Under the pieces are notes generated by a model. The model was not told the DNA's origin, did no database searches, and saw only the letters and a list, made by a program, of their open reading frames with translations. DNA of 38,375 nucleotides from a virus: the IMG/VR virus record IMGVR_UViG_3300029130_000025; one strand, written 5' to 3'. Shown in pieces: positions 9,600 through 37,802 of the stretch. The first letter of the stretch is position 1; the number at the start of each line of letters is the position of its first letter. The translations under genes and the position numbers were made by a program.

Positions 9600-10706
9600 C
9601 TACTCAGACGTTGCCGCCATCTGATTTACGGCGGCATGAGAAGCGGCGGTATCTGGATGGATATAGCGCTGTGTCGTTGTAAATTTGGTGTGGCGCATAA
9701 CCTCCTGAATTACGGACGGTGCAATATTGCCCAGAGCCAGCGCAGTTGCGGTGGTGTGGCGGCAGGAGTACGGCGGGAGGTCTCTGCATCCGGCATTTTT
9801 TACAGCTCTATGATATTCCAGATAGAACTTGTCACGATCCATGCAGAGGACGTAATCTTTCCGGCTCTTTGAGTAATCGCAGAGTTCGTGGAGCACGGGA
9901 GCGACGGACTGTGGAAATACCATGACCGTTTCCTTCCGCTTTCTGGTTTTGAGGCCAGCCCCCCGAATTTCACACTTGTTAAAATCTATCATATCCTTTT
10001 TCAGGATGAATAGTTCCCCCGGCATCATGCCCGTGTAGATCATCAGCAGGATGTAGCCCACAAACGTATCACCGGCGGTGTATGCCGCCCAGAATAGTTT
10101 AATCTCGTCCTCGGTGTACGGGGTCATCTCTTTTTCATCCAGCGGCGGTAGCTCAATATATTCCGCCAGATTTGCCCGGAGATGGCCCTCTGCAACGGCC
10201 ATTTTCAGGAGGTGGGACGCTACGGTTTTCATATCCCGTGCGGGGTAGTATGTGGAGGTCTCAGTGTCCACCTGTCCCTGCAAATCTCCAATGGATAGCT
10301 CGGTTATGGGTTTGTCGTATAGGCCCTCCCAACGCTTCCAAGCGATCTCATAGGCCGTTTGCTTAGATTTTCCAAGCTTGGTAAATGCAGATGAGTGCCA
10401 TGTTTTATGGTACTCGCGGAGTGTAGGCACTTTTACGACAGTTTCCGGAGGGCATGACGCATAGGCCAGCGCGGCCTTTTTTGTGGCAAATCCGCCCTTC
10501 CATTTCCGGGGATAATGGACTTTACCATCATCACCGATATAGCGCGGGGCAGACCATACGGCTGTCCACGTTTTCCCTCGCTTGATGGCCGTCCCCTGTC
10601 CGTTTCCACGGCTTTTTACGCTTGTGGTTACAGTTAATTTAGCCCCGCACTTTGGGCAGAAATTAGCCCCCTCCGGTGCCTCTGAATGGCATTTCCTGCA
10701 TTGCAT
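9600..10706 (-). CDS. int: Tyrosine integrase with an N-terminal zinc-ribbon
   Basis: MQCRKCHSEAPEGANFCPKCGAKL is a CxxC...CxxC ribbon. The C-terminus has ...YSCRHTTATALAL...VMRHTKFTTTQRYIH (R..H..R..Y catalytic pattern). It is adjacent to attP. Confidence 0.9.
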   Translation of the reverse strand: MQCRKCHSEAPEGANFCPKCGAKLTVTTSVKSRGNGQGTAIKRGKTWTAVWSAPRYIGDDGKVHYPRKWKGGFATKKAALAYASCPPETVVKVPTLREYHKTWHSSAFTKLGKSKQTAYEIAWKRWEGLYDKPITELSIGDLQGQVDTETSTYYPARDMKTVASHLLKMAVAEGHLRANLAEYIELPPLDEKEMTPYTEDEIKLFWAAYTAGDTFVGYILLMIYTGMMPGELFILKKDMIDFNKCEIRGAGLKTRKRKETVMVFPQSVAPVLHELCDYSKSRKDYVLCMDRDKFYLEYHRAVKNAGCRDLPPYSCRHTTATALALGNIAPSVIQEVMRHTKFTTTQRYIHPDTAASHAAVNQMAATSE

Positions 10707-11719: not shown

Positions 11720-12799
11720 TTACTGGTAGGTTTGATTGGCGGCGTAAACCGCCTGGTCGTAGGTAAACCCTTCAAACTCCAGCTGGGACACCAGTCCGTC
11801 ATAAGAAAAGGACGTGTAATCAAGATAATCCTTCGCTTTCTTCACAGCCTGCTCATACCAGTCTGCCCCACAATTGTCAGCGCCATAGACAGCTTGATCG
11901 TGCGTGAACTTGGAATACTCCAGTTGCTCAATCAGGCCGGTATAAGAAAAAGATGAACTCCGCAAATAGCTCTGTGCTTTTTTTAGTGCCTGTTCATACC
12001 AATCTGCACCACAATTGTCTGAAGCATAGGTCGCATCCTCCGTCGAATACCCCTCATATTCCAGCTGCTCAATCAGGCCAGTCCGGGAAAATGCAGATAC
12101 ACGCAAGTAGGATTTTGCCCGTTCCAGTGCATTCTTCTGGGACTGTGTGGGGTCCGTAGGAGTTGCAGAAGGCTGGATCTGCTGCACGAGGCGAACCAGC
12201 ACCGCAGTGCCTTCGATGCGCGTCATATTTTTCTTCGGGTTGAAATTGCCGTTGTTGTCACCATTTACGATCCCAAGGGTACGGAGCAGCTCAACACTGG
12301 GCTGTGCATATCCAGAGATCGCAGAAGCATCCTGAAAGCCGTCTGCAATCTTATCTCCTGCGGCAACGTTCAGACCGAGATTACCGATGGCACGGCCAAC
12401 GATGGTTGCCATGTCCTGACGAGTGATGGGGGAATTGGGGGAAAAGGTCGTATCGCCGGTGCCGTTAATAATGCCGTTATCAACGCCCCAGTAGAGGTAC
12501 GGGATATAGTAGGCGCTATTGTCTACATCGGCAAACTTATATGTATTGGTTCCGCTGCCGGCCATAGCACGGCCAAAGACCGCAATAAACTGGGAACGTG
12601 TCATGGTATCATAGGGCGCAAAGGTGGTAGCAGATTTACCATTGACCATTGAGTGATCCACGGCATAGGTCAATGTATCGCCATACCATGCATCCAGATT
12701 TACATCCGTAAAATCGCTTGCCGATGCGGCAAATACGGACGTGGTGAGCATCAACACTGTAAGCAGCGCCGATGTGATTTTTGCCAGTTGCTTTTTCAT
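11720..12799 (-). CDS. Secreted SLH-anchored protein with three Ltp (host cell surface-exposed lipoprotein, PF07553-type) repeats; candidate superinfection-exclusion protein
   Basis: Signal peptide MKKQLAKITSALLTVLMLTTSVFAASA. Three SLH-like units follow (FTDV...W..., FADVDNSAYY..., FQDASAISGYA...). Then come three repeats ALxxAKSYL..S.FS..GLI.QLE...F....A.Y.....GADW, matching the TP-J34 Ltp repeat as I remember it. Confidence 0.8.
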   Translation of the reverse strand: MKKQLAKITSALLTVLMLTTSVFAASASDFTDVNLDAWYGDTLTYAVDHSMVNGKSATTFAPYDTMTRSQFIAVFGRAMAGSGTNTYKFADVDNSAYYIPYLYWGVDNGIINGTGDTTFSPNSPITRQDMATIVGRAIGNLGLNVAAGDKIADGFQDASAISGYAQPSVELLRTLGIVNGDNNGNFNPKKNMTRIEGTAVLVRLVQQIQPSATPTDPTQSQKNALERAKSYLRVSAFSRTGLIEQLEYEGYSTEDATYASDNCGADWYEQALKKAQSYLRSSSFSYTGLIEQLEYSKFTHDQAVYGADNCGADWYEQAVKKAKDYLDYTSFSYDGLVSQLEFEGFTYDQAVYAANQTYQ

Positions 12800-12851
12800 A
12801 GGGATTTCCTCCTTTTATTTTACACCTTACAGTGTAGATTACATTAAAACC

Positions 12852-12880
12852 ATCATACTATTCAGGCAAGCGATTTTCAA
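12852..12880 (-). promoter_or_regulatory. Candidate own promoter of the SLH-Ltp gene
   Basis: The minus strand reads TTGAAA (12880..12875), a 17-nt spacer, then TATGAT (12857..12852). It lies downstream of the repressor terminator. Confidence 0.4.
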
Positions 12881-12910
12881 GTAATTGGCGCAAAATGACA
12901 CAAATTCAAT

Positions 12911-12941
12911 GCAAAAGGAGCAGGGGGGAAGCCCCTACTCC
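12911..12941 (-). terminator. Intrinsic terminator of the repressor gene, overlapping its stop codon
   Basis: The minus strand reads ggagtagggg-cttcc-cccctgctcc, a 10-bp stem with one G-U pair, followed by ttttgc. Confidence 0.7.
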
Positions 12942-13318
12942 TTTCCTTTTGTCAACTCAACAACCAATTGTGCCATGGCCTGCCAGCTTGCTTCCGATAA
13001 TTTCGACAATTTGTAAACAAACTGCCGACGGAATGATTCCGGTTCGTCCTGTAATACGTCGTTGAAGAACTCCATGATTTCCTCATCCTTGGACTTTTTA
13101 ACGTACATATCGCCCTCACCGGTACGGAGCCAATGCTCCGACACGCCGAAGACTCGGCAAATAGACAGGACGGTCTGGTTGGATGGGTTTGTTTTCCCGT
13201 TCTCAATGTTTGACAGTGCTGTTGGCGTAATGCCTATTTTGTCCCCAAGCTGTTGCAAGGTCATTCCGGCGCTTTTCCTGATTTTTTTTATCCTTGCGTT
13301 TATGGTATCACCTCCCAT
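12935..13318 (-). CDS. CI-like repressor (XRE HTH, no S24 peptidase domain)
   Basis: INARIKKIRKSAGMTLQQLGDKIGITPTALSNIENGKTNPSNQTVLSICRVFGVSEHWL. It is divergent from the early operon. Confidence 0.8.
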   Translation of the reverse strand: MGGDTINARIKKIRKSAGMTLQQLGDKIGITPTALSNIENGKTNPSNQTVLSICRVFGVSEHWLRTGEGDMYVKKSKDEEIMEFFNDVLQDEPESFRRQFVYKLSKLSEASWQAMAQLVVELTKGKE

Positions 13319-13332
13319 TTGTCCACGACACC

Positions 13333-13360
13333 ATTATACCACGATGATAAAATAAATCAA
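13333..13360 (-). promoter_or_regulatory. Candidate repressor-maintenance promoter giving a nearly leaderless mRNA
   Basis: The minus strand reads TTGATT (13360..13355), a 16-nt spacer, then TATAAT (13338..13333). Only 14 nt separate the -10 from the ATG at 13318, and there is no SD upstream. Confidence 0.5.
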
Positions 13361-13391
13361 GATAATTTTTTAATTAAGTTCAAAAAATACC

Positions 13392-13420
13392 TTGACATTT
13401 GAATGTAATTGATATAATAT
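13392..13420 (+). promoter_or_regulatory. Early lytic promoter (PR-like) with a palindromic operator candidate
   Basis: TTGACA at 13392..13397. Extended -10 TGaTATAAT, with TATAAT at 13413..13418. The palindrome ACATT-TG-AATGT at 13395..13406 overlaps the -35 and spacer. Confidence 0.6.
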
Positions 13421-13459
13421 ATAACCACGTTAAAACACAGGGGCAAGGGGGCAAATCGA

Positions 13460-13663
13460 ATGGAAATGACACTGGAATGGCTGTTGAAGAACACGGATCG
13501 TCTGATTCTTGACAGTACAAAGATTGTCATATTCTACACCGGGCACCAGGTGGTCAGTGGATCGTGGTTTGAAGATTCGGTTCTAGGATATGCAGATCGA
13601 AACATTCTGAAATTTGAATATTCCGCAGAGACCGACACCATGCGCATTTGGTTGGAGCAATAG
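13460..13663 (+). CDS. Hypothetical first early protein (Cro position but no recognisable HTH)
   Basis: 67-aa ORF with RBS aaggggg. Confidence 0.55.
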   Translation: MEMTLEWLLKNTDRLILDSTKIVIFYTGHQVVSGSWFEDSVLGYADRNILKFEYSAETDTMRIWLEQ

Positions 13664-13743
13664 GCCCTGGGCGGTGGGTGTGGCGCTCCTCATACATGTA
13701 AAAACGAGAGGATAAATCGACAACAACGAAAGGGGGACACACG

Positions 13744-13893
13744 ATGTCTGAAATTGAAAAGAAAATGGCAGAGACCATCAAGGAAGGACTGCCGAAGCTG
13801 AGCGAGTTTGACAAGGGCTATTTTTACCGGGCACTGGAGGAAGCCGCAAACCGTGACGAGAAGAAGGAAAAGGAGGAAAAGGACGATGACTGA
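13744..13893 (+). CDS. Hypothetical 49-aa acidic/lysine-rich protein
   Basis: RBS aaaggggga. Product MSEIEKKMAETIKEGLPKLSEFDKGYFYRALEEAANRDEKKEKEEKDDD. Not in the ORF track. Confidence 0.4.
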   Translation: MSEIEKKMAETIKEGLPKLSEFDKGYFYRALEEAANRDEKKEKEEKDDD

Positions 13894-14101
13894 CGCGGAA
13901 CTGCTTGAGGAAATCAAGGGGCTTGACAAGGCAAACCTGACACCGGCAGAGGCCGCACAGGTGATGCATTGTAGCCCGGATTTGATCCGAGTGGCAGCCA
14001 GGCAGAAGCCAGAACTGCTTCATTTCCCTGTTTCCGTTGTTGGGAACAGGACGAAGATACCGAGGATTCCTTTCCTCCGGGCTTACGGGGTGGACGTATG
14101 A
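13886..14101 (+). CDS. Excisionase/MerR-type HTH DNA-binding protein (Xis or Cro-like candidate)
   Basis: ATG 13886 is in frame with track ORF 13808. LTPAEAAQVMHCSPDLIRVAARQ...VGNRTKIPRIPFL is typical of the excisionase-family HTH. Confidence 0.55.
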   Translation: MTDAELLEEIKGLDKANLTPAEAAQVMHCSPDLIRVAARQKPELLHFPVSVVGNRTKIPRIPFLRAYGVDV

Positions 14102-14274
14102 ATGCACCCTGTAAGAATTGCCCGGAACGTCACACCCTGTGTCACAGTGACTGCTTGAAATACATAGCATTCCGAGAGGAGCGGGACAGAATCAACCGGG
14201 AGAAAGACCGTGATAACCGAGTATATCGGAATCATAAACGGTGGATACCACGGCACATAGATGGTGAGCAATAG
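14098..14274 (+). CDS. Small Cys-rich (zinc-finger-like) protein
   Basis: ATGA overlap with the previous gene. Product MNAPCKNCPERHTLCHSDCLKY... (58 aa). Confidence 0.4.
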   Translation: MNAPCKNCPERHTLCHSDCLKYIAFREERDRINREKDRDNRVYRNHKRWIPRHIDGEQ

Positions 14275-14288
14275 GAGGTAACGAGAAA

Positions 14289-14636
14289 ATGGAATACACA
14301 GATCTCCCGCACAACCATATTACATTCAGAAAGGAAATGACAACTATGGACAAGAAGCAGAAATACATCGTGAGATGTGACCGAAGTGGCATCTTCTACG
14401 GGGAGATCGCAGGCCGCAACGGGCAGGAGGTTCAGATGGAGAATGTCCGGTGCCTCTGGTACTGGAGCGGGGCGGCATCTCTGCTGGAGCTGGCAAAGAG
14501 CGGCGTTAAAAACACGGCAAGATGCAAATTCACGGTGAGTGTAGACAGCATCACGCTGCTCGACGCAATTGAGCTGCTGCCCTGCACGCCGGAAGCGGAG
14601 CGGAGCATTGATGGGGTGGAAGAATGGAAAGCTTGA
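14289..14636 (+). CDS. Conserved hypothetical phage protein
   Basis: RBS aggagg. YIVRCDRSGIFYGEI...VRCLWYWSGAASLLELAKSG is a motif I recall from many phage hypothetical proteins. Confidence 0.6.
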   Translation: MEYTDLPHNHITFRKEMTTMDKKQKYIVRCDRSGIFYGEIAGRNGQEVQMENVRCLWYWSGAASLLELAKSGVKNTARCKFTVSVDSITLLDAIELLPCTPEAERSIDGVEEWKA

Positions 14637-15382
14637 ATCTTTCTGACAAAATCGCCGAGTTCCTGAATCCCGGCAACGGCTACGGCGACGGCTACGGCTC
14701 CGGCTACGGCGACGGCTACGGCTCCGGCTACGGCTACGGCTCCGGCGACGGCTACGGCTCCGGCGACGGCTACGGCTACGGCGACGGCTACGGCTACGGC
14801 TACGGCTCCGGCTCCGGCTACGGCTCCGGCGACGGCTACGGCGACGGCGACGGCTACGGCTACGGCTACGGCTCCGGCTACGGCTCCGGCTACGGCAACG
14901 GCGACGGCCCAGACGTTTTTTGTGGAAAGAAGGTATTCCGCATTGATGGAATCAGAACAATCATGTCAGCCGTACACGGGAACGTTGCAGTTGGTGAAAT
15001 CCTGCACAGCGATTTCACCACCGAGAAAACATACATCGTAAAGCACGGTGCACTGTTTGCACACGGGAGAACCCTGCATGAAGCACGGGATGCGCTGCTG
15101 GAAAAGATGTTTGATGATATGCCGGAACCGGAGCGAATTGAGAAATTTGTAGATGCTCACAGCATCGATGGCACATACCCGAACATAGATTTCTTCAACT
15201 GGCATCACCGGTTGACCGGGAGCTGCGAGCAGGGCCGCAAGGCGTTCGCAATGGATCATGGAATCGACCTGAGCGGAAGCATGACGACCTCTGAATTTTT
15301 GGAACTGACCAAGGACGACTATGGCGGCGACATTATCAAGCGGGTGATCGAGACATATAAGAATGGCAACAAGGAGGTGTGA
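14624..15382 (+). CDS. Protein with a ~75-aa (G-Y-G-D/S)n low-complexity region plus a conserved phage C-terminal domain
   Basis: GNGYGDGYGSGYGDGYGSGYGYGSGDGYG...GYGNGDG is followed by a globular part (...FAHGRTLHEARDAL...WHHRLTGSCEQGRKAF...). Confidence 0.7.
   Translation: MESLNLSDKIAEFLNPGNGYGDGYGSGYGDGYGSGYGYGSGDGYGSGDGYGYGDGYGYGYGSGSGYGSGDGYGDGDGYGYGYGSGYGSGYGNGDGPDVFCGKKVFRIDGIRTIMSAVHGNVAVGEILHSDFTTEKTYIVKHGALFAHGRTLHEARDALLEKMFDDMPEPERIEKFVDAHSIDGTYPNIDFFNWHHRLTGSCEQGRKAFAMDHGIDLSGSMTTSEFLELTKDDYGGDIIKRVIETYKNGNKEV
14672..14908 (+). repeat. In-frame tandem ggctacggc(gac/tcc) repeats
   Basis: Visible perfect and near-perfect 9- to 15-nt units across about 235 nt, encoding the Gly-Tyr repeat. 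Confidence 0.9.
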
Positions 15383-15384
15383 AC

Positions 15385-15627
15385 ATGGCAAACAGTGTAA
15401 AGCTCAAAACTCGGTATGAAAGGCCGAGCTGCGTAGTGCACATCAACCCGGAAGCGGTGAAGGTGCTGGACAAACTGGAAAAGGTCACCGGGCAGCCACG
15501 TTCTTATCTTGCAAGCCAGCTTATTATTCAGGGCAGTCAGTTCATTGAGTTCTGCCCTGAGGAATGCGACGGCTGCGAGTTCAGGGAGCGGTGTGACAAG
15601 ATCAGCTATGAGAGGAGAAATTCATAA
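15385..15627 (+). CDS. Hypothetical protein (possible ribbon-helix-helix; Cys cluster at the C-terminus)
   Basis: ATG 15385 lies 7 nt after aaggagg. Product ...VLDKLEKVTGQPRSYLASQLII...CPEECDGCEFRERC. Confidence 0.5.
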   Translation: MANSVKLKTRYERPSCVVHINPEAVKVLDKLEKVTGQPRSYLASQLIIQGSQFIEFCPEECDGCEFRERCDKISYERRNS

Positions 15628-15983
15628 TGGCAACAGCATCTGAGCTGCTGATAGAGCTTGGCGTCAATGTCAGCTCCAAGGGAGGCCGGCAGTTGACACG
15701 CTGCGTGGAGCTTGCTGCCGATGACCCGACGCTGACGGACTCCATTGTAAAGGTACTATACCCAATGGTTGCAGATGCCTCCGGAACATCCGCCAAGGCA
15801 ACGGAGCGAATTATCATCCGGGAGCTGCGACTGGTCACTGGGTATCCAAGCTGGGGCGACAGGCTTGCATCGTTTGAGTCCCGGCATGGATGCAAAGGCC
15901 TATTCTCAGGCTACGAACATCAGACGTTAAAGCCGTTCATCCAGAAAGTCGCCTACATATTAAACAAGGAGAGACCGAGATGA
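15627..15983 (+). CDS. Spo0A C-terminal (DNA-binding effector) domain-like protein without a receiver domain
   Basis: ELGVNVSSKGGRQL...IVKVLYPMVADASGTSAKATERIIIRELR...LFSGYEHQTLKPFIQKVAYIL aligns by eye with B. subtilis Spo0A-C (EIGVPAHIKGYLYL...[29 protein letters not shown]...LFGYT...KPTNSEFIAMVADKL). Confidence 0.65.
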   Translation: MATASELLIELGVNVSSKGGRQLTRCVELAADDPTLTDSIVKVLYPMVADASGTSAKATERIIIRELRLVTGYPSWGDRLASFESRHGCKGLFSGYEHQTLKPFIQKVAYILNKERPR

Positions 15984-16336
15984 AGTTCCACATAGAGTCC
16001 AACACGCTGGTGCTCAGCAACGTTGGAGAATACTATGACGCAATTGCCGCAACCGGGCAGTTCAAGTGGAACAGGCGGACAAAGACGCTGGAAAGCCCGG
16101 TCACTGCGGAAAGCCTGACAGCGCTGCGGGATGCCGTTGGTCGGCTTCCGGAGCTGCTGGCCATGACGCTGCAGGATCTGCAAAAAAAAGATGTCCTGCT
16201 GCAAGAGCAGAGGGAAAGTCTGGACAAAGATCCAAAGCCACTGTTTCACTACCCGGTAAAGGCAAACCTTATGCGGCACCAGATCGCCGGGGCAAACATG
16301 GCAATGATCGTATTCGGAGAAACAGGAGGATTATAA
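15980..16336 (+). CDS. Hypothetical protein
   Basis: ATGA overlap with the previous gene (ATG 15980, in frame with track ORF 15890). 118 aa. Confidence 0.5.
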   Translation: MKFHIESNTLVLSNVGEYYDAIAATGQFKWNRRTKTLESPVTAESLTALRDAVGRLPELLAMTLQDLQKKDVLLQEQRESLDKDPKPLFHYPVKANLMRHQIAGANMAMIVFGETGGL

Positions 16337-16338
16337 TC

Positions 16339-16701
16339 ATGAGAATCGAGACGCCAATTGACCGGGCACAGAACCGGAGCAGAAGAGCTGCACTGCTGCT
16401 GGAACGGCAGGAAGCGGCGAAGAAGGAAAACGAGGGGATCCTAGGAAATCCCGAGGCATGGAACCTGGCATTTGAGCGGGCGCTTGCCCAGCGTAATCAG
16501 GAGCTTGCCGACCAGCAGGATGCGGTGGTGATCCCGGCGGAGATCATCAAGCGCACGGGGACAGAAGAAGTGCCGACGGACGGAAAGTTGGAACGGCGGA
16601 TCAGCAGAGAACTGGCAAGGTTTCTGAACGGCATGAGCCTCGGGGCCGTTTCGGCGGCGGTGATCCTGTGGGCCATCATGATTGCGGCGGGGGTGTTGTG
16701 A
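16339..16701 (+). CDS. Hypothetical tail-anchored membrane protein
   Basis: ATG 16339 after aggagga. Coiled/charged N-terminus and a C-terminal TM segment (LGAVSAAVILWAIMIAAGVL). Confidence 0.5.
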   Translation: MRIETPIDRAQNRSRRAALLLERQEAAKKENEGILGNPEAWNLAFERALAQRNQELADQQDAVVIPAEIIKRTGTEEVPTDGKLERRISRELARFLNGMSLGAVSAAVILWAIMIAAGVL

Positions 16702-17352
16702 TTGCAGGTACTGGTTGCGTGCGAGGAATCCCAAGCCGTATGCAAGGCGTTCCGGGAGCGCGGACACGAAGCGTACTCCTGCGATATACAGGAGCCAAGT
16801 GGCGGACACCCTGAGTGGCACATCTTGGGGGATGCGCTGGAAGCCATGAGGGGGGAACAGATAACCACCATGGACGGACAGACACATGATATCCCCGGAT
16901 GGGATTTGATGATAGCGCATCCACCGTGTACATATCTCAGCAATGCTGGAGCTCGGCACTTGTGGAAAGGGCACCAGCTACAAGCTGATCGGGTGATACA
17001 GGGAATCAAGGCGCGCGATTTCTTCATGGCGTTTTACAACTCTAATATTCCCAAGGTGGCGATTGAAAATCCAGTCCCCAGCAAGGTGTTTGCAATGCCA
17101 GCATATACGCAAACCGTCCAGCCGTGGCAATTCGGACACCCGTACACAAAAAGGACGTGCTTATGGCTTAAAGGGCTGCCCCCGTTGGTTCCAACGGATA
17201 TTGTAGAGCCAAAAGCCACATGGTGCCCGAGCGGAAGCTATAGCCATAAACACGGAGCAGAGCACAGGGGAATGTTTACAACGGACCGTGCGAAGAACAG
17301 AAGTAAATCATTTCCCGGGATCGCCAGGGCGATGGCGGAACAGTGGGGATAG
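16702..17352 (+). CDS. DNA cytosine-C5 methyltransferase-like protein (short phage family)
   Basis: VLVACEESQAVCKAFRERGHEAYSCD...WDLMIAHPPCTYLSNAG...VAIENPV...QPWQFGHPYTKRTCLWLKGLPPL...FPGIARAMAEQWG. The PPC and ENP motifs are arranged as in the phage Dcm-like family. Confidence 0.65.
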   Translation: MQVLVACEESQAVCKAFRERGHEAYSCDIQEPSGGHPEWHILGDALEAMRGEQITTMDGQTHDIPGWDLMIAHPPCTYLSNAGARHLWKGHQLQADRVIQGIKARDFFMAFYNSNIPKVAIENPVPSKVFAMPAYTQTVQPWQFGHPYTKRTCLWLKGLPPLVPTDIVEPKATWCPSGSYSHKHGAEHRGMFTTDRAKNRSKSFPGIARAMAEQWG

Positions 17353-17462
17353 AAAAGCCGCCTTCGGGGCGGAATCCCGACGGCGGCAAATGCTGGGGTA
17401 AGCTTACATGGACATTGTAAGGTATATCCCTTAATTTGTCAATCTTTTTAGGAGGTGTTTCT
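17353..17462 (+). promoter_or_regulatory. Intergenic cassette A: GC hairpin + TAAGCTTAC + TTGTAA-17-GTCAAT + RBS (paralogous to 18590..18706)
   Basis: gccgcc...ggcggcaaatgc at 17357..17394. taagcttac at 17399..17407. ttgtaa at 17415..17420. gtcaat at 17438..17443. The 12-mer aatttgtcaatc is shared with cassette B. Confidence 0.55.
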
Positions 17463-17837
17463 ATGGAAAATGATTTGAGAACGTCCCTGATCGACATGGC
17501 CAACGGCGGCTTCAAGGAAGTAATCGACTATGAAGTCAACAAGGTCATGGATAACATCTGGGATGTCAACACAAAGGCCACTGCAAAGCGGAAAGTCACT
17601 GTTACCATGGAGTTTATCCCAGATGACAGCAGAGCCAATATTCGAGTGGCTACTACGGTGAAAACGGCACTGGCTACGGTGAATCCTGTCACTACCACCT
17701 TGTACATTGCTGGCGAAGATCACACCGGTGAGCTTCGGGTCGTCGAAATGACGCCGCAGGTGCCCGGGCAGGTCGATATAAACGGAATTGAGCAGACGGC
17801 AGCGCCGGTGCTGAAGCTGATCGGCGCTGCGGTATAA
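17463..17837 (+). CDS. Hypothetical early protein
   Basis: ATG 17463 after aggagg. 124 aa. Confidence 0.55.
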   Translation: MENDLRTSLIDMANGGFKEVIDYEVNKVMDNIWDVNTKATAKRKVTVTMEFIPDDSRANIRVATTVKTALATVNPVTTTLYIAGEDHTGELRVVEMTPQVPGQVDINGIEQTAAPVLKLIGAAV

Positions 17838-29658: not shown

Positions 29659-30217
29659 CTTCCAGACCAGGAGCGCTGAGGAGGGACAGGAGCTGTGGGT
29701 CGAGGGCTATGCGGTAGTGTTTAACCGTGAGACTGTCCTTTTCGAGATGGACGGGAATGAGTACAAGGAGGAGATTTCCCCGGACGCTTTTGCCGATACA
29801 CGCATGGACGATGTGATTTTTAATTACAACCATCAGGGCAAGGTTATGGCGCGGACGCGCAATCATACGCTGACCCTCAGCGTGGATGATAAGGGCCTGT
29901 TTATCCGGGCCAGACTGGACGGCACTCAGGAGGGCCGGGAACTGTATGAGGAGATTCAGGGCGGGTATGTAGACCGCATGAGTTTCCAGTTTACGGTCGC
30001 GGAAGAATCCTATGACCGCGAGGCCCGAAAATGGACCATCAGACGAGTCAAAAGGCTTTATGATGTCTCTGCTGTGAGCATCCCGGCCTATGACGATACA
30101 TCCATCAGCGCAAGACGAGACGCGGCCCTGGAGGCGGACGCTCAGGCGCGGCGCGTGGAGGTGGCGGAAGCTGCCCTTGCCAGAGCGCGGGTGGAAATCA
30201 AACTGAAACTTAGCTAA
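29624..30217 (+). CDS. Prohead protease (HK97 / S78 family)
   Basis: WVEGYAVVFN...FNYNHQGKVMART...LFIRARL...VDRMSFQF...VSAVSIPAY. Confidence 0.85.
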   Translation: MVRPESQTRQFDFQTRSAEEGQELWVEGYAVVFNRETVLFEMDGNEYKEEISPDAFADTRMDDVIFNYNHQGKVMARTRNHTLTLSVDDKGLFIRARLDGTQEGRELYEEIQGGYVDRMSFQFTVAEESYDREARKWTIRRVKRLYDVSAVSIPAYDDTSISARRDAALEADAQARRVEVAEAALARARVEIKLKLS

Positions 30218-30228
30218 AGGAGAAAAAC

Positions 30229-31362
30229 ATGAACGAAAAGAGATTGCTTGAAATCCAGGCCAGAAAGGCCGAGATCCTTTCCGAGTTGCCCGACGCCACC
30301 ACTGAGCGCTGTGCCGAGCTGAATGCAGAGGCGGACGAGCTCATCAAGGAGGAGACCGCCCTCCGGGCGAAGACCAACCTCGCAGACAAGCTGGGCCAGG
30401 TGGTGCCGACCCCGACCAACGCTAACAAGGAGCGGGCGAAGCGGTTTATGGAGTGCCGCCGTGCGCAGTTCCAGACCCGCTCTCTCCTGCTGTCCGGCGG
30501 GAAAATCGCACAGCCCACCGAGGTGAGCGGCATTAACGGCCTGTATGAGACCCAGGTCTCCAGCCTGATCGACCTTATCAAGGTCACCGACTGCACCGGG
30601 ATGGGAACCTACCGGGTGGCTTACCAGAAGGACGGCATTGCCGCCGCTGGCGCTAAGACTGAGGGCACCGCACCCACCGAGGCGGACGTAACCGATATGT
30701 TTGCCTATGTGGATCTGACCCCTACCATGTACGCTACCCTTGCCTATGTGTCTAAGGACATCCGCAGACAGTCCCCTCTAGACTATGAGGGCAAGGTTGT
30801 GGCGGCTGTCCGGGACGCGCTGCGCAAAAAGGCCAGCGAGGTTGCCGTAACCAATATCCTGGCCTCCACCCTGAATCAGTCTCTGGATGTAACTACCATC
30901 GACAAGGACACCCTGGAGAATATTGTCCTAGGCTATGGCGGTGACGAGGGTATCGAAGGAGCTGCCTATCTTTTCCTCAATAAGAAGGATCTGCTTGCCT
31001 TCGGCGAGATCAAGGGCAAAAACGAGTATCTGCCGGTGTATACCATCGTACCAGACACCCTAAACCCAAACACTGGCACTATCAAGGTCAACAACGGCCT
31101 GAGCTGCCGCTATTGCCTCAACAAAAATATCAAGGCTCTGACTGGCACCACCGCCAGCGCCTCGGCAGCTACTAAAACGATGTTTTATGGCAACCCCCAG
31201 ACCGCCGAAATGGCACTGTTTGGCGATACGACCGTGGAGGACAGCGACGGCTACAAGTTTGCCGAGGGCCTCATTACCATCCGGGGCGAGACCAGCGCGG
31301 ACATTGACGTGACCACCTGGCACGGCTTTACCGTGGTCAATCTGCCCAAGACCGGCGGCTAA
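30229..31362 (+). CDS. Major capsid protein (HK97 fold) with an N-terminal delta/scaffold-like coiled coil
   Basis: 377 aa after the protease, with a coiled N-terminal ~100 aa. Size and position fit. Confidence 0.85.
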   Translation: MNEKRLLEIQARKAEILSELPDATTERCAELNAEADELIKEETALRAKTNLADKLGQVVPTPTNANKERAKRFMECRRAQFQTRSLLLSGGKIAQPTEVSGINGLYETQVSSLIDLIKVTDCTGMGTYRVAYQKDGIAAAGAKTEGTAPTEADVTDMFAYVDLTPTMYATLAYVSKDIRRQSPLDYEGKVVAAVRDALRKKASEVAVTNILASTLNQSLDVTTIDKDTLENIVLGYGGDEGIEGAAYLFLNKKDLLAFGEIKGKNEYLPVYTIVPDTLNPNTGTIKVNNGLSCRYCLNKNIKALTGTTASASAATKTMFYGNPQTAEMALFGDTTVEDSDGYKFAEGLITIRGETSADIDVTTWHGFTVVNLPKTGG

Positions 31363-31364
31363 TT

Positions 31365-31658
31365 ATGAGTGCGGGGATGATGGCCGAGATGGTGGCCCGG
31401 TGTAAAAAAAATCTCCGCATATCGCACGAGCTCCTGGACAGCGAGATACAGATGGCGATTAAGGCTGCCTGTCAAGCCATGCAGCGGGCAGGCGTGTCTG
31501 AGGCCTACATCAAGGACCCGGACCCGGTTACGCAGGAGGCCATCATCGCGTATGTGATGTACCGCCATGCCGACGGAGACAACGACGGCTATTTTGCGTC
31601 ATGGCAGTATCAGACGGACTGCATCCGGAGACATCGGGAGGCTGGCAATGCGGAATGA
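31365..31658 (+). CDS. Head-tail connector (gp6-like)
   Basis: 97 aa. KKNLRISHELLDSEIQMAIKAACQAMQRAGV. It lies after the capsid gene. Confidence 0.6.
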   Translation: MSAGMMAEMVARCKKNLRISHELLDSEIQMAIKAACQAMQRAGVSEAYIKDPDPVTQEAIIAYVMYRHADGDNDGYFASWQYQTDCIRRHREAGNAE

Positions 31659-31959
31659 TTTGCTGACGCTGATCCGGGAGACGAGCGCGAATAACGAGTA
31701 CGGCGTACCGATCCGGAGCGACGCAGAAAGGACTACGGTTTTTTGCCGGGTCAAATCTGTGGAGCGGCAAGAGTACTATGAGGCCGGACAGGGCGGGACG
31801 AAACCCGCGCTAAAGTTTATCGTCTGCTCAGACGAATACGACGGCCAGCAGATTGCCGAATATGACGGCAGACGGTATGCCATATACCGGACGTACCAGA
31901 CCGGAGAGACGGTGGAGCTATATGCGGAGGTAAAGATTGGCACGCACAATAGAGGTTAA
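31648..31959 (+). CDS. Head closure / head-tail adaptor protein
   Basis: ATG 31648 (track M28). Product ...TVFCRVKSVERQEYYEAGQGGTKPALKFIV...YAIYRTYQTGETVELYAE. Confidence 0.6.
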   Translation: MRNDLLTLIRETSANNEYGVPIRSDAERTTVFCRVKSVERQEYYEAGQGGTKPALKFIVCSDEYDGQQIAEYDGRRYAIYRTYQTGETVELYAEVKIGTHNRG

Positions 31960-32320
31960 AATCGGCGGCCTGAGTGACGCACTAAACGCCATTTTGGACG
32001 AGTACGGAGACAAAGCAATCTATGCAATCCAGGACGCCGCCGCAAAGGTCGGGAAGGAAACCGCAAAAACATTAAGAAGCACGTCACCAAAAGACACCGG
32101 GGATTATGCCAAAGGATGGATTACAAAGACAGAGACAGAGCGGACACACTCTAGCACAGTGGTGTATAACCGCATCAAGCCGGGGCTGACACATCTGCTG
32201 GAGCATGGGCACGCTAACCACACGGGAGGCCGCACCCCTGCACATGTCCACATTGCGCCAGCCAATGACGAGGCCCAGAAGCGTTTTCTCGGGCTGGTGG
32301 AGGAGGCACTTGAGGGATGA
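31937..32320 (+). CDS. HK97 gp10-family neck/tail-completion protein
   Basis: TTG start after ggagg. Product ...AKTLRSTSPKDTGDYAKGW...YNRIKPGLTHLLEHGH. Confidence 0.65.
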   Translation: MARTIEVKIGGLSDALNAILDEYGDKAIYAIQDAAAKVGKETAKTLRSTSPKDTGDYAKGWITKTETERTHSSTVVYNRIKPGLTHLLEHGHANHTGGRTPAHVHIAPANDEAQKRFLGLVEEALEG

Positions 32321-32658
32321 CCTATCAGGAGATCAACCACATGGTCGGAGATGTGGCTGCCGCTATAGGTGGACGGCACACTTACTACCAATTCCCTGTG
32401 GGGCAAGCCCCAACACCGCCATACGCCATTTTTTACTTTCCCGGTGACAACCCAGTGTATGCCGATGGCAAAAATTATAAAAAAATTGAGACCCTGATTA
32501 TTGAGCTATACCTCCCCAACAAGGACTTCCGCGCGGAACAGCTGGCAGAGGCCGCGATGGCCAAGTATGGCATGAGCTGGGCGAGGTATGAGAGCTACAT
32601 CGACGATGAGCAGATGTATCAGGAGCGCTATGAGATGGAGGTTATGTTAGATGGCTAA
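32317..32658 (+). CDS. Tail terminator / tail-completion protein (by position)
   Basis: 113-aa ORF between the gp10-like gene and the major tail protein, with overlapping starts and stops. Confidence 0.45.
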
Positions 32659-33241
32659 CAAAGTTAAATACAACCTGCGGAACGTCCACTGGGCAAAAGC
32701 CACGATCGGAGAGGACGGCACCGCGACTTATGGAGATGTCAAGGCTTGGCCCGGTGCGGTGTCGCTGTCCCTTGACGCCCAGGGCGACAGCACCCCGTTT
32801 TACGCCGACGGAATCGTATACTTTAACTCTGCTGCAAACAGCGGATATGAGGGCGATTTTGAGAGCGCAATCATCCCCGAGGACTTCCGCGTTGAAATTC
32901 TCGGCGAGGCAAAAGACGGCAAAAACGTAATGATCGAGGACACCGAGGTTAAAACCAACGTCTTTGCCCTCCTCTTTGAGTTTGAGGGCGACGTCAAGGC
33001 GATCCGGCATGTGCTGTATAGATGCACCGCCGCACGGCCATCTGTGTCTGGACAGACCAACGAGGACACAATCGAGCCTCAGACCGAGAGCATGACGATC
33101 ACCGCGACCAGCGTGTATGACGATGCGCTGAAGAAAAACATCGTCAAGGCGCGGACATCTGATGCCACGACCAACGGCACGGACGACACCACCTACAACG
33201 GCTGGTATACCAAGGTCTACCAGCCTACCGCCTCGGCATAA
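32651..33241 (+). CDS. Major tail protein (phi13/TP901-1-like)
   Basis: [58 protein letters not shown] is typical of this family. It lies before the chaperone and TMP. Confidence 0.7.
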
Positions 33242-33253
33242 TAGGAGGGCAGT

Positions 33254-33613
33254 ATGCGGGATATTGTTAAAATTGGCGATGTCGCAGTAGATATGCTGGC
33301 CAACGCCGCCACGCCGTACCTGTTCCGCCGGGTATTCCATCTGGACATATTGCGCTTTTTTGCAAAGAGCGCATCGGATGACATGGACGATGCGACGGCT
33401 ACGGAGATGATCACGCGGCTTGGGTACGTCATGGCTCGTCAGGCCGACGGCGTGATTGACGCTGCCGGGGAGGATGACATGATAGACTGGCTGGCCCAGT
33501 TTGCTCCAAACGACATCAGCGCTGCACTCGCGGATGTGATGGCATTGTATAATCGTCAGTCTGTGACCACGTCAACCTCAAAAAAAAAGGCCGGGGGACA
33601 GACCGAGAGATAA
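33254..33613 (+). CDS. Tail assembly chaperone (G-like, zero-frame product)
   Basis: 119-aa acidic protein between the major tail protein and TMP. It ends just after a slippery A-run. Confidence 0.7.
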   Translation: MRDIVKIGDVAVDMLANAATPYLFRRVFHLDILRFFAKSASDDMDDATATEMITRLGYVMARQADGVIDAAGEDDMIDWLAQFAPNDISAALADVMALYNRQSVTTSTSKKKAGGQTER

Positions 33614-33774
33614 ACGCTGCGGTATACCTGCTGCGGGCGCTCCAGATTGGCCTATCTATGGCGGATTTGGAGCGCCTGGAGGTGGGTATGGTGATGGACT
33701 TAATCACGGAAAGCTCAAACGACCGTGAGGACTACACGCCCGTTGCCAACCAGGCGGATTTTGATAGATTTTAG
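33254..33774 (+). CDS. Tail assembly chaperone GT-like fusion via -1 frameshift at 33583..33589
   Basis: The -1 frame stays open from the A-run to TAG at 33772..33774. It encodes ...NAAVYLLRALQIGLSMADLERLEVGMVMDLITESSNDREDYTPVANQADFDRF. Confidence 0.6.
33583..33589 (+). promoter_or_regulatory. A AAA AAG slippery heptamer (programmed -1 ribosomal frameshift site)
   Basis: A run of 9 A residues (33580..33588) followed by G. In the zero frame it reads tca aaa aaa aag. Confidence 0.6.
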
Positions 33775-33785
33775 GAGGGCAAGAG

Positions 33786-36700
33786 ATGGCAAACCGAATA
33801 AAAGGCATTACCGTCGAGATCGACGGCAATACCACAAAACTTACTGACGCCCTCAGAAAAGTCAATACCCAGGTAAGCCGCACATCCACAGCCCTAAAGG
33901 ATGTGGAGCGGCTGTTGAAGCTGGACCCGACCAACACGGAGCTACTGCGGCAGAAACAGCAGCTGCTGGCCGAGAGCATCACCGCGACAAAGGACAAGCT
34001 GGAGGAGCTCCACAAAGCCGAGAAACAGGCCAAGGAGCAGATGGAAAACGGCAAGATGAGCACCGACCAGTATCGGGCCATCCAGCGGGAGATTGTCGAT
34101 ACAGAGCAAAAGCTCAAAAAGCTGGAGGAGCAGGCCACGAGCGCGGCAAAGTCTCTCGGTGATAAGATGCAGGAGGCCGGGGAGAAGGTCAAAAAGGCCG
34201 GGAAGGCAGTAAGCGACGCCGGGGACAAGATTAGCAGCGTCGGCAAGGGCCTGACCAAGAGCCTGACTGTACCACTTGCTGCCGCTGGGACGGCCGCTGT
34301 AAAATTTGCATCGGATTATGAGGAAAACCTGAACAAGGTAGAGGCGTCGTTTAAGGGTAATGCTAGAGAGGTCAAGGAGTGGGCCAAAACGGCAACGGAA
34401 AGCTTTGGCATGTCTGAGAGTGCCGCCCTTGAGGCTACGTCGCTCTTTGGGGACATGGGCACATCTATGGGCCTTACAACCGAAGAGGCGGCGAGCATGT
34501 CTACAAGCCTCGCTGGGCTTGCCGGTGATCTGTCCAGCTTTAAAAATATCGGCATCGACGAGGCAATGACCGCCCTCAAGGGGGTGTTTACCGGGGAGAC
34601 GGAGTCTCTCAAGACCCTCGGCGTGGTCATGACGGAGACCAACCTCAAGCAATTTGCCTCGGACTTCGGTCTCGTGTACGACGGCATGAGCCAGGCGGAA
34701 AAGGTCACGCTCCGCTATAACTACGTTTTGGCAAAGACCAAAAACGCACAAGGCGACTACAAAAACACGGCAGACGGCACGGCAAACTCCATTCGGACTC
34801 TGCAAGCTGAGGCGGCCAACCTCGCCGCCACCTTTGGCCGTGAGATGCTCCCCTCCATCACGCCGCTGATCCAGGGCGCAACGGAGATGGTTAAAAAATT
34901 TGGGAAGCTTGATAGTGCTACCAAGCAAGGAATCATCAAGGCTGGCGCACTTGTGGCAGCCATTGGCCCCGTGACTACAGCCATTGGGGCTGCGACGAGC
35001 GGTGTTGGTAAGCTCGTCAACGTCGCCGGGAGCGGGATTGCGACTGCCGGTAAATTTACAAACGCATTAGCCGGAGGGTCTGGGTTGGCGTCAGCTCTCG
35101 GGGCAGCGCTCGGCCCTGCCGGTGCGGCAGGATTGGCCGTCGCTGGTGCCGCTGCGGCAACAACCGGCGTAATCGCACTTTCAGACGCAATCCACAAGGC
35201 TACTGACCCTGCAATCCAGATCAAAAAGCACATGGAAGCCATGTCGGCTGCGGAGGAAAAAATTGGGCAAGCTGACAACATCATCACACTTGCAAATCGG
35301 TACGATGAGTTGCGGGAGAAACTGCAAGAATCAAGCCTTACGGCAGAGCAGTACGCGGAAATCCAAGACGAGATGTCTGAGGTCCGGTCTGAGCTGGCCG
35401 ATGCAACGGGTGGAGCGGTAACAGCTGAGGGGGAGTACAACTCCGAGCTTGATAAGACCGTCAATACGCAGCGTGAGCTGGCCGAACTCGAGAAGGAGCG
35501 CTCCAATCAGGATTTATATGCAGAGGTAATTGCTGGGGCAAAGGACTACAGGAAATCGCTAGAGGACCAAAAGGATCAGCAAGACCAAATCGAAAAAACG
35601 AAAAAAAGATTGGTGGATGCCGAGAACAGGCTAGAGAGCGCTATGGCAAGCGTCACGGCTGAGACAAAAAAGAATGGGGAGGCAACCGCTAGCAGCAATA
35701 TTGAGCTGGAAGACGCGTCTATTTGTGCCGATGGCACTAGAGATAGCTACAACGACCTTGTTGATGCGCTTGCGGAAATGCAAGCGGAAACGACTGCATA
35801 TGAAAAAAAGGTTATTAGCCTTGTAAACAGCGGTTTCCTCCCAGCTAAGGATGCGGCAACACTGCTTGGGGTGTCAGAGGACGTCCTTGCCAGAAAGATG
35901 ACCGCGTACTGGAATGAGACACACAATGCCGAGACTGGGACAATGGCACTAGCAGAGGACCAGCTTGAGGCGGCAGAGGCGGCGGAGCAACAGGCCAACG
36001 CGGAGGCGGCCGCCACGAAGTCCCTCGCTGATGTCGGGGCGGCGGCGTATGATGCGATTAACGCTGGCGGTGATCTTACGGCGGCATACGAGGACCTGTC
36101 AAAGCAAGCTGAACAGTATACTGACACGGCAAATGCACAGACTGTTGCAGACACGGAGCGAGCGCTTAAAATGCTGGAGGTTGCCGCGACCACTCAGGAG
36201 CTCGGGAAGGCATACGGGGAGATGGGCGTCGAGATTGACGGCACCCTATCTGATATGGCTGCATATCTGGTCGAGACCGGCACCAGCGTTGACGAGTTCG
36301 CCTCCGGCGTCCAGTCCATGCGGGACAGTGTTGTTAATAACTTCCAGAGCATCAAGAATGAAAATGCCCTGACGGCAGACGAGATCGTGTCCAACCTGGA
36401 GTACAACCTCCAGGCACAGCAGCAGTGGAGCCAAAACCTCTCGGACATGTGGGCACAGGCGTACGCAGACCAAAACACCAATGTGATGGCGTACATCAAC
36501 TATCTCGCGCAGATGGGGCCGGAGTATGCGGCAGAGGTCCAGAGCTTTGCCAATGCCGGGTACTCCAAACTGCAAGAGGCCGCTGACATCTGGAGCCAGA
36601 TCGGCGAGCAGTCAACCAGCGACTATGCCGCCGGTATATATATGCAGCAGTATCTGGCCGGAGAGGCCGGTACGGCAATCGGGCAGGAGGCTCTGACTGC

Positions 36701-37802
36701 GGCGGGCAACCAGAGCTATGACGATGTAGGCCAGCAAATCGCCGGTGGCACTGCCAGCGCGATCACGTCACAATCCGGCGTCGTGGCGGCAGCGGGTAAA
36801 GACCTCGGCATGGCGGCCCACTCCGCAGTGGCCAGCATCAGCTGGACTAATCTGGGAGACGCAATCGCAACCGGTATCTCTAACGGCATCACAAGTGGAG
36901 AGGGACAAGTGACCGGGGCCGCCCAGGACCTGGCCACCGCTACCACGTCTGTATGGATGAGCAACGGCGGGAAATTTCAAAATTCGGGGTCTACTGCGGT
37001 CGCCCGCATCCGAGCCGGTATGATGTCTCAGTCCGGCAGCATCCGGCAAGCTGGGCAGACCCTGGCGACGGCGGTCAACACCATTTGGGCAGGACAAGCT
37101 GGACGATTCCAGCAGTCTGGCCGTAATGCCGGGACAAGGATACGAGCAGGGCTGCTGTCTCTGACCGGTGATATACGGGCCGCTGGGCAGACCCTGGCAA
37201 CATCCGTGCAGAGCGCGTGGGAGGCCATGATGGGCACGTTTTACGCCGAGGGCAACAGCGCTGCGGTAAACCTGGCAAACGGCATCTACTCCGGGCGCGG
37301 CACCGTCACCGGAGCGGCAAGCAATGTGATTTATGCTGCCCGTGGCGCTATGCAGATTGGCGGCTGGTACGATCTTGGGTACAACATCTCCGCTGGCGTG
37401 GCCGATGGTGTACGCGGCGGCAGCTACCTTATCACCCAGGCAGCCAATGCGGCGGCACAGAATGCACTGGCGTCAGCAAAGAGAAGTTTGGGCGTACACT
37501 CCCCGTCCAGAGTTTTCCGGGATGAGGTAGGCAAGATGATCTCCGCTGGTATGGCGGAGGGCATCACGGACAACGAGAGCATGGTGTCCAAAGCAATCAG
37601 AGCCCTAAACACCAAGATCACTGGCGGCGTCGGGACCGGGGGCATGGCAGCACTCGGGCCATCTGGGAGCTGTAAAAACACAACCATTGCACCTGTGATT
37701 AACGTGTATGGTGCATCCGGCCAAAATGTCAACGACATCGCGGACGCTGTGGCAGATAGGCTGAGCAGGCTGGTACGGAGGGGGGCGGCGGCACTTGCGT
37801 AA
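33786..37802 (+). CDS. Tail tape measure protein
   Basis: 1338 aa, with a coiled-coil N-terminus, Gly/Ala-rich TM-like core and internal repeats (GSIRQAGQTLATAVNTIWAG / GDIRAAGQTLATSVQSAWEA). Position fits. Confidence 0.9.
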   Translation: MANRIKGITVEIDGNTTKLTDALRKVNTQVSRTSTALKDVERLLKLDPTNTELLRQKQQLLAESITATKDKLEELHKAEKQAKEQMENGKMSTDQYRAIQREIVDTEQKLKKLEEQATSAAKSLGDKMQEAGEKVKKAGKAVSDAGDKISSVGKGLTKSLTVPLAAAGTAAVKFASDYEENLNKVEASFKGNAREVKEWAKTATESFGMSESAALEATSLFGDMGTSMGLTTEEAASMSTSLAGLAGDLSSFKNIGIDEAMTALKGVFTGETESLKTLGVVMTETNLKQFASDFGLVYDGMSQAEKVTLRYNYVLAKTKNAQGDYKNTADGTANSIRTLQAEAANLAATFGREMLPSITPLIQGATEMVKKFGKLDSATKQGIIKAGALVAAIGPVTTAIGAATSGVGKLVNVAGSGIATAGKFTNALAGGSGLASALGAALGPAGAAGLAVAGAAAATTGVIALSDAIHKATDPAIQIKKHMEAMSAAEEKIGQADNIITLANRYDELREKLQESSLTAEQYAEIQDEMSEVRSELADATGGAVTAEGEYNSELDKTVNTQRELAELEKERSNQDLYAEVIAGAKDYRKSLEDQKDQQDQIEKTKKRLVDAENRLESAMASVTAETKKNGEATASSNIELEDASICADGTRDSYNDLVDALAEMQAETTAYEKKVISLVNSGFLPAKDAATLLGVSEDVLARKMTAYWNETHNAETGTMALAEDQLEAAEAAEQQANAEAAATKSLADVGAAAYDAINAGGDLTAAYEDLSKQAEQYTDTANAQTVADTERALKMLEVAATTQELGKAYGEMGVEIDGTLSDMAAYLVETGTSVDEFASGVQSMRDSVVNNFQSIKNENALTADEIVSNLEYNLQAQQQWSQNLSDMWAQAYADQNTNVMAYINYLAQMGPEYAAEVQSFANAGYSKLQEAADIWSQIGEQSTSDYAAGIYMQQYLAGEAGTAIGQEALTAAGNQSYDDVGQQIAGGTASAITSQSGVVAAAGKDLGMAAHSAVASISWTNLGDAIATGISNGITSGEGQVTGAAQDLATATTSVWMSNGGKFQNSGSTAVARIRAGMMSQSGSIRQAGQTLATAVNTIWAGQAGRFQQSGRNAGTRIRAGLLSLTGDIRAAGQTLATSVQSAWEAMMGTFYAEGNSAAVNLANGIYSGRGTVTGAASNVIYAARGAMQIGGWYDLGYNISAGVADGVRGGSYLITQAANAAAQNALASAKRSLGVHSPSRVFRDEVGKMISAGMAEGITDNESMVSKAIRALNTKITGGVGTGGMAALGPSGSCKNTTIAPVINVYGASGQNVNDIADAVADRLSRLVRRGAAALA

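Follow-up and report, generated by a model that had tools for sequence, protein, structure and literature searches.

The effector domain at the C-terminus of the sporulation regulator Spo0A is described by two structures, 1FC3 from Geobacillus stearothermophilus and 1LQ1, the DNA complex from Bacillus subtilis. Homologues of spo0A that are truncated to the effector domain have also been found in gut phages, and it was proposed that they act without host signals (Schwartz et al. 2023, mBio, PMC10294663). The evidence for phage 'spo0A', which bears on whether phages steer the sporulation of gut Firmicutes, is bioinformatic only (PMC10294663), and no experimental follow-up of a phage Spo0A C-domain was found in the literature searched. 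Here we analysed a stretch of viral DNA of 38,375 nucleotides (nt) from IMG/VR record IMGVR_UViG_3300029130_000025 (the window), which carries a gene for a stand-alone protein with the Spo0A effector fold (Spo0A_C-like gene, 15627-15983, + strand). A preliminary description of the window had stated that phage-borne sporulation regulators were noted in surveys, and Schwartz et al. (2023) indeed report the same truncation and the same inference. The receiver-less phage protein is therefore a published class met in a new phage. What appears to be new is that the protein falls into a rare subfamily, far diverged, which fails on each of the Spo0A-specific features tested, that its recognition helix is hypervariable within this subfamily and that it has a conserved partner gene, dn118. 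The reading that we favour, with about even confidence, is that the protein is an early helix-turn-helix DNA-binding regulator that works independently of phosphorylation, has moved its specificity off the 0A box, is without the activating surface of Spo0A and probably acts together with dn118.

The open reading frame (ORF) of 118 amino acids (aa) is present on the + strand with an ATG start exactly as the preliminary description had it, and the claimed match to the Spo0A C-domain along the whole length holds. With 40.7 bits (E 2.5e-10), the protein exceeded the gathering cut-off of the Pfam Spo0A_C profile (PF08769), which is 25 bits, and had no other Pfam match; this alignment spans residues 6-63 only, which are profile positions 3-60 of 104. 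A phmmer search of the PDB gave 1LQ1 and 1FC3 as the sole biologically meaningful matches (E ~2e-4, ungapped, query 4-68 to chain 10-74), and it reproduced the register in which E-GV...KG, IVKVLYP with ITKVLYP, and TSAKATERIIIREL with its Spo0A counterpart had been paired by eye. When a profile of 11 subfamily members was compared with 1FC3, the match extended over query 4-115 and chain 10-113 (E 3e-12) and included the C-terminal half. The AlphaFold2 (AF2) model has a mean predicted local distance difference test score (pLDDT) of 90.4, a predicted template modelling score (pTM) of 0.84 and six helices, at 4-10, 18-32, 34-52, 56-71 (the recognition helix), 76-87 and 101-115. Significant Foldseek matches of this model in the PDB were again only 1FC3 and 1LQ1 (template modelling (TM) score 0.80, root-mean-square deviation 2.4 Å over 117 columns, 27-30% identity), and the next match had E >=2. 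The protein is genuinely homologous to the effector domain of Spo0A and has all six of its helices, the helix-turn-helix included.

At the C-terminus the by-eye alignment was right that the homology spans the end of the protein, while the shared 'KP' is out of register. The correct pairing is FIQKVAYIL of the query with FIAMVADKL of Spo0A, so that A109 corresponds to Ala257 of Spo0A. Throughout, query residue j corresponds to B. subtilis Spo0A residue j+153, and this offset agreed with the classical mutant positions (H162, L174, E213, R214, G227, S233, F236, V240 and A257). The absence of a receiver domain was borne out too: the ORF cannot be extended upstream, as it begins at the first start codon that follows a stop, and the two upstream ORFs have no response-regulator (Response_reg) match.

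To compare the protein with canonical Spo0A, we aligned it by MAFFT with B. subtilis Spo0A-C, whose sequence was taken partly from the PDB match and was validated by the mutant positions, and with five full-length Spo0A from the exhaustive search described below. A position was called conserved when it was shared by at least five of the six references, which gave 32 positions, and residue conservation was used as a proxy for residue-level DNA contacts. Identity to B. subtilis Spo0A-C is 26%, and 14 of the 32 conserved positions are kept, as opposed to 20-28 in the other receiver-less proteins of the same search. Those kept belong mostly to the core and the helix-turn-helix scaffold: G165, G172, L176, K195, L197-Y198-P199, A202, E213, R214, I216, T248 and F252-I253 (G12, G19, L23, K42, L44-Y45-P46, A49, E60-R61, I63, T100 and F104-I105 in the query). 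Replaced positions include V212, R217, W224, G227, F236, K246, P247, N249 and E251. The recognition helix, TSAKATERIIIRELR, is identical to that of Spo0A at five of 15 residues; its Glu-Arg core is kept, while Arg217, which all the reference Spo0A sequences share, has become Ile, and K, A and R stand in place of S210, R211 and H218. The Spo0A signature KPTNSEFI has become HQTLKPFI, the FGYT motif is gone, G227 is D, and F236 is G or H depending on the aligner. Two insertions of four residues lie in the D-E and E-F loops that flank helix E. The helix-E segment that holds the sigma-A-activating residues of Spo0A was unrecognisable in the protein. The existence and importance of a sigma-A activator region in Spo0A have been described (PMC4690370), and the phage protein is predicted to be devoid of this activating surface. 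Furthermore, the protein fails the NCBIfam Spo0A equivalog TIGR02875, where it scored 28 bits over model positions 153-212 only against a cut-off of 200; for comparison, the receiver-less protein P0014 reached 150 bits from its C-domain alone and the full-length P0044 reached 183 bits. The recognition helix has a basic stripe at i/i+4 spacing (K57, R61, R65 and R68) and the isoelectric point (pI) of the protein is 9.0. With the kept helix-turn-helix core, the stripe and the pI make a signal-independent DNA-binding role plausible, in which the protein would bind DNA through helix 56-71 and need no phosphorylation signal.

The conservation pattern within the subfamily points to a changed target. 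We compared a divergent subfamily set of 10 sequences (the query, P0002, L029, P0003, P0011, L033, P0029, P0039, P0056 and P0059) with a canonical-type set of 15, made up of 10 receiver-less proteins and five full-length Spo0A. In the canonical set the recognition helix is the most conserved segment (mean column entropy 1.09, others 1.6-2.0), and E213, R214 and R217 are invariant. In the divergent subfamily it is the most variable segment (1.75, others 1.40-1.65), and R61, which corresponds to R214, is the one residue of this helix that never varies; L44 and K102 are likewise invariant outside it. Helices E and F, on the other hand, are more conserved in the divergent subfamily than in the canonical set. 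Reading the universal host 0A box would need a recognition helix that is constrained like that of Spo0A. Since the opposite was seen, the helix seems to have diversified as the specificity helices of phage regulators do, and the sequence specificity of the protein would have shifted from the canonical 0A box. Together with the predicted loss of the activating surface, such a shift would most likely make the protein a phage-specific early regulator that occupies or occludes sites on phage DNA, host DNA or both, and repressor-like action would then be expected over activator-like action.

According to the preliminary description, the phage can mimic host Spo0A or compete with it. In the form of competition, the protein would occupy host 0A-like boxes through its Glu-Arg core without activating, and would block sporulation entry or other Spo0A programmes during lytic replication. 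E60-R61 do align with the invariant E213-R214, T54, K42 and the LYP motif are kept, the residues of the activating region are lost, and the gene is placed in the early lytic operon. Moreover, the isolated DNA-binding domain of Spo0A binds its legitimate targets unphosphorylated (PMC3485338), and such a competitor resembles the published hypothesis on phage spo0A truncations (PMC10294663). However, the invariant R217 is Ile, S210, R211 and H218 are changed, only five of 15 helix residues match, and the TIGR02875 score is just 28 bits. Close relatives also differ freely in their recognition helix, despite the 0A box being a single target that is fixed throughout the Firmicutes. Three other proteins of the search, P0012, P0014 and P0047, are receiver-less and yet keep the canonical recognition-helix sequence and KPTNSEFI, so loss of the receiver does not force divergence. 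We consider competition with host Spo0A unlikely on these grounds, and neither it nor mimicry at 0A boxes finds support in the sequence.

A second proposal was that the phage couples its own promoters to Spo0A-type sites. The phage genome is not enriched in 0A boxes, with TGTCGAA found twice (both intragenic) against 3.97 expected and TGNCGAA 15 times against 21.8 expected, and none lies at a phage promoter; Spo0A-coupled phage promoters are thus unsupported. A search for operators by enrichment of intergenic 7-mers gave ribosome-binding sites, terminator palindromes and one repeat array (24042-24443).

Several observations weigh against the reading of a regulator with its own specificity. The conservation sets are small (10 and 15) and were chosen by similarity to the query profile, so the pattern is indicative and not conclusive. 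Which residues correspond to each other in helix E varies with the aligner, MAFFT and HMMER being one position apart there. The retained Glu-Arg core, E60-R61, could allow partial overlap with 0A-like sites, and E213 and R214 presumably make base contacts in the 1LQ1 complex. Neither a regulator-type site array nor a binding site could be tied to the Spo0A_C-like protein in the phage genome, and the array at 24042-24443 is possibly a phage replication origin or a regulator-binding array, of which the origin is more likely.

The genetic setting confirms the early operon in which the preliminary description had placed the gene. The Spo0A_C-like gene has an AGGAG Shine-Dalgarno sequence at 15613-15617 (+ strand), read from the sequence, 9 nt from the ATG. 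This ATG shares bases with the stop codon of the preceding gene (TAATG), and the stop codon of the Spo0A_C-like gene does so with the next gene's start codon (ATGA); the gene thus sits in an operon and is translationally coupled on both sides, to an 82-aa gene directly 5' (up82, 15379-15627, + strand) and to the 118-aa gene dn118 directly 3' (15980-16336, + strand). The rightward early operon is headed by a promoter-like site at 13392-13420 (+ strand; TTGACA, 17-nt spacer, TAATAT; 10 of 12 matches in a consensus scan), about 2.2 kb 5' of the Spo0A_C-like gene, which is in turn 5' of the genes for YqaJ, RecT, SSB and the replication initiator. A weaker promoter-like site (9 of 12 consensus matches) is at 13325-13353 on the same strand. 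The scan of 12800-17500 gave no + strand promoter-like site stronger than 13392-13420 and no + strand terminator-like site, and hence none of either kind between 13392-13420 and the Spo0A_C-like gene. The gene is therefore an early lytic gene and not an obvious lysogenic moron, and its product would be made from the early rightward operon. Divergent from this operon is a CI-like HTH_3 repressor gene (12935-13318, - strand; Pfam HTH_3 E 8.6e-19, with a weak Phage_CI_repr match), which is predicted to mark the lysogeny/lysis switch 5' of the early operon. Against three homologues, the ratio of nonsynonymous to synonymous substitution rates (dN/dS) of the Spo0A_C-like gene was 0.14-0.25, values that are approximate as dS was near saturation, and these ratios indicate a real gene under purifying selection.

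The operon position also bears on whether the protein is a constitutive Spo0A mimic, as in the forced sporulation of the preliminary description: an always-on effector domain that would activate the Spo0A regulon and thereby bring the phage genome into spores. The protein does share the Spo0A-C fold and lacks the inhibitory receiver. In B. subtilis, Spo0A variants from which the receiver was deleted show constitutive activity, for which PMC10294663 cites Ireton et al. (1993). However, the gene is within a lytic early operon instead of being a lysogenic moron, no 0A boxes are at phage promoters, and neither the sigma-A-activating region nor KPTNSEFI is conserved, with 14 of 32 positions kept. 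We regard a constitutive mimic as highly improbable.

The preferred reading, an early DNA-binding regulator of altered specificity, includes a partner. In all nine dn118 contexts that were read (the family of the window, L027, L028, L029/L030, L031, L032, L033, L034 and L035), a Spo0A_C-like gene is located zero or one gene 5' of dn118, and the intervening gene, which is often present, encodes an HTH_17 (Xis/MerR-like) protein. Across these contexts the identity of the Spo0A_C-like partner falls from 70% to ~27-30%, while that of dn118 is 49-87%; in L032 the partner is a canonical-type sequence (IRHAIEVAW...GKP). The gene dn118 was not mentioned in the literature searched. Homologues of dn118 form 15 clusters at 49-97% identity, its dN/dS is 0.08-0.17, and it has no Pfam, PHROG or PDB sequence match. 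Its AF2 model (pLDDT 71, tail <50) predicts an N-terminal beta-beta-alpha-beta-beta-alpha arrangement followed by a long helix, and the best fold match, the XPB N-terminal domain (XPB-DRD-like), was not significant (E 0.41). The C-terminal tail is invariant (YPVKAxLMRHQIxGANMAMIVFGE) and predicted to be disordered. By eye, the tail is similar to the segment that immediately precedes motif I in SF2/SNF2 helicases. The gene up82 encodes a weakly ribbon-helix-helix-like N-terminus (RHH_1 E 0.042, below threshold) and a C-terminal Cys cluster, CPEECDGCEFRERC. Homologues of up82 with 60-80% identity are directly 5' of the Spo0A_C-like gene in L027, L029 and L034, and one with 40% identity is two genes 5' of it in L028. 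The co-inherited dn118 probably acts with the Spo0A_C-like protein, and so, in the sister phages, probably does the HTH_17 protein.

A distant subfamily member, P0011 (31% identity; L001, 8001-8381), is found in an integrative element with the order HTH_3 repressor, Spo0A_C-like gene, HTH_17 gene and two integrases. This element also carries an SNF2 helicase. The Spo0A_C-like/HTH_17 pairing is thus also present in the lysogeny/integration module of another mobile element.

The strict co-inheritance with dn118 in 9 of 9 contexts could instead mean that the protein is a protein-binding adaptor, in which the Spo0A-C fold is a scaffold for dn118, host Spo0A or the sigma subunit of RNA polymerase, and the variability of the recognition helix reflects co-evolution with the partner. 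The invariant tail of dn118, predicted to be disordered, is typical of a docking peptide, and in the subfamily helices E and F vary less than they do in canonical Spo0A. However, dn118 is conserved and yet the supposed interface helix is variable; the core residues of the helix-turn-helix and the basic stripe of the recognition helix are kept, and the pI of 9.0 suits a nucleic-acid binder. Such an adaptor seems quite improbable to us. A broader idea, which we put forward tentatively and consider unlikely, is that a phage-specific lineage has recruited the effector fold of Spo0A to serve as variable DNA-specificity subunit in a conserved early-gene module formed by up82, the Spo0A_C-like protein, an optional HTH_17 protein and dn118, in which dn118 would link the protein on the DNA with some conserved machine of the host or the phage. 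If true, this module would be a new kind of phage transcription/replication switch or else, in uncultured gut Oscillospiraceae, a device of two parts directed against Spo0A.

Relatives of the Spo0A_C-like protein are rare. When 1.84 billion cluster representatives were searched exhaustively with HMMER, 53 matched at E <=1e-3 and two at <=1e-10; among the matches were true Spo0A (~250 aa, matched in the C-domain) and many stand-alone proteins of 110-170 aa. In the indexed search the divergent subfamily had about ten clusters. No relatives were found in GTDB species genomes or in IMG/VR, and none in INPHARED by megablast, while tblastn against INPHARED gave only three weak, unannotated matches. 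JGI metagenome contigs had no relatives either; the record of the phage itself was also not recovered there, and its sample is evidently outside that collection. PHROG matches were weak (E 2e-5; phrog_24603 and phrog_37855, with no function assigned), and the structural neighbours in BFVD were virome proteins that already carry the label 'Sporulation initiation factor Spo0A C terminal', with E 0.013 or weaker and 15-20% identity.

The phage genome is complete, circularly permuted and 38.4 kb long, with tail genes at the start of the window and the tape measure gene at its end, and neither INPHARED, IMG/VR nor the GTDB representative genomes contained a match to it. The tail genes and a GH25/choline-binding endolysin are followed by an integrase, an Ltp-type lipoprotein with SLH domains and the CI-like repressor. 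After the promoter-like site come YqaJ, RecT, SSB, a PDDEXK nuclease, the replication initiator and two DNA methyltransferases, and then HNH, terminase, portal, protease and capsid genes before the tape measure gene. The identical Spo0A_C-like protein was read on 23 contigs, including the window itself as JGI 3300045988 Ga0495776_008911 and siblings of 38,280-38,403 bp from other human-gut metagenomes. One integrated copy (L007) is within a 141-kb scaffold, scaffold_66 of ERZ28660358, and adjoins an ABC-transporter gene and an FAD/Fe-S oxidoreductase gene of an uncultured Oscillospiraceae, and a host flank protein beside it is 96% identical to a protein of an uncultured Oscillospiraceae metagenome-assembled genome. 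The phage is a temperate, siphovirus-like phage of an uncultured gut Oscillospiraceae.

Other features of the window were also recorded. The tyrosine integrase (9600-10706, - strand) has an N-terminal zinc-ribbon domain. A lysogeny-module gene (11720-12799, - strand) encodes three Ltp repeats, of the superinfection-exclusion lipoprotein type, fused to three SLH domains, and this fusion suggests a host with an S-layer. The 252-aa protein at 14624-15382 (+ strand), whose gene is 3' of a DUF6948 gene, begins with ~90 aa of low-complexity Gly-Tyr-Gly-Asp/Ser repeats (GYGDGYGSGYG...), and its globular C-terminal half is 85% identical in L027. Both the window and most sibling contigs carry a gene for a 216-aa DNA methyltransferase (16702-17352, + strand, phrog_757, TTG start); the integrated copy L007, compared with L008 and L009, has a gene-call gap where this gene would sit, which may be a presence/absence or a gene-calling polymorphism. 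A second methyltransferase, N6_N4_Mtase, is encoded at 24444-25238. Between the replication genes and this gene, the 400-bp non-coding stretch 24042-24443 (no Rfam match) holds an iteron-like array entirely on the + strand, with GCAAYGG repeated six times, where ~0.13 would be expected in 300 bp, and a GAATTGCGAMG-type sequence four times, spaced 72, 31 and 63 nt apart. Scans of the window found no Rfam match and no tRNA. PHROGs and Pfam gave no ArpU, RinA or sigma-type late-gene activator among the ~40 phage ORFs scanned, a set that did not include the head and tail structural genes at 26744-37802.

For annotation, a phage gene with a Spo0A_C Pfam match should be taken for a sporulation auxiliary gene only once its recognition helix has been checked. 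The label 'phage Spo0A' covers at least two things, namely near-canonical effector domains with a helix that reads the 0A box, which are credible mimics, and the diverged, dn118-linked subfamily. The near-canonical kind is the suitable choice for sporulation-hijacking experiments, while the diverged kind may show how the domain of a master regulator is re-used as a phage regulator.

Similar to the C-domains in 1FC3 and 1LQ1, the Spo0A_C-like protein has the six-helix fold with helices C and D as the helix-turn-helix, and the two align without gaps in this region. It differs from them in its low identity (26%), its loop insertions, the lack of a receiver on the same polypeptide and its failure in TIGR02875. 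Like the phage homologues of Schwartz et al. (2023), it consists of the effector domain only and is encoded on a phage genome of gut Firmicutes. Unlike the canonical receiver-less forms, it and its subfamily of about ten clusters have neither the canonical recognition helix nor KPTNSEFI, and they are linked to dn118. In its working mode the protein is rather like the phage regulators of the Cro, CI and Xis type, as a small basic helix-turn-helix protein from an early operon with small neighbours of DNA-binding type (the ribbon-helix-helix-like up82, and HTH_17 proteins in sister phages). Moreover, P0011 is located between a repressor gene and Xis-Int genes, and the recognition helix diversifies between related phages. 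The likeness is one of working mode only and not of membership, since Cro and CI are five-helix proteins and Xis has a winged helix, whereas the phage protein has the six-helix fold of Spo0A-C.

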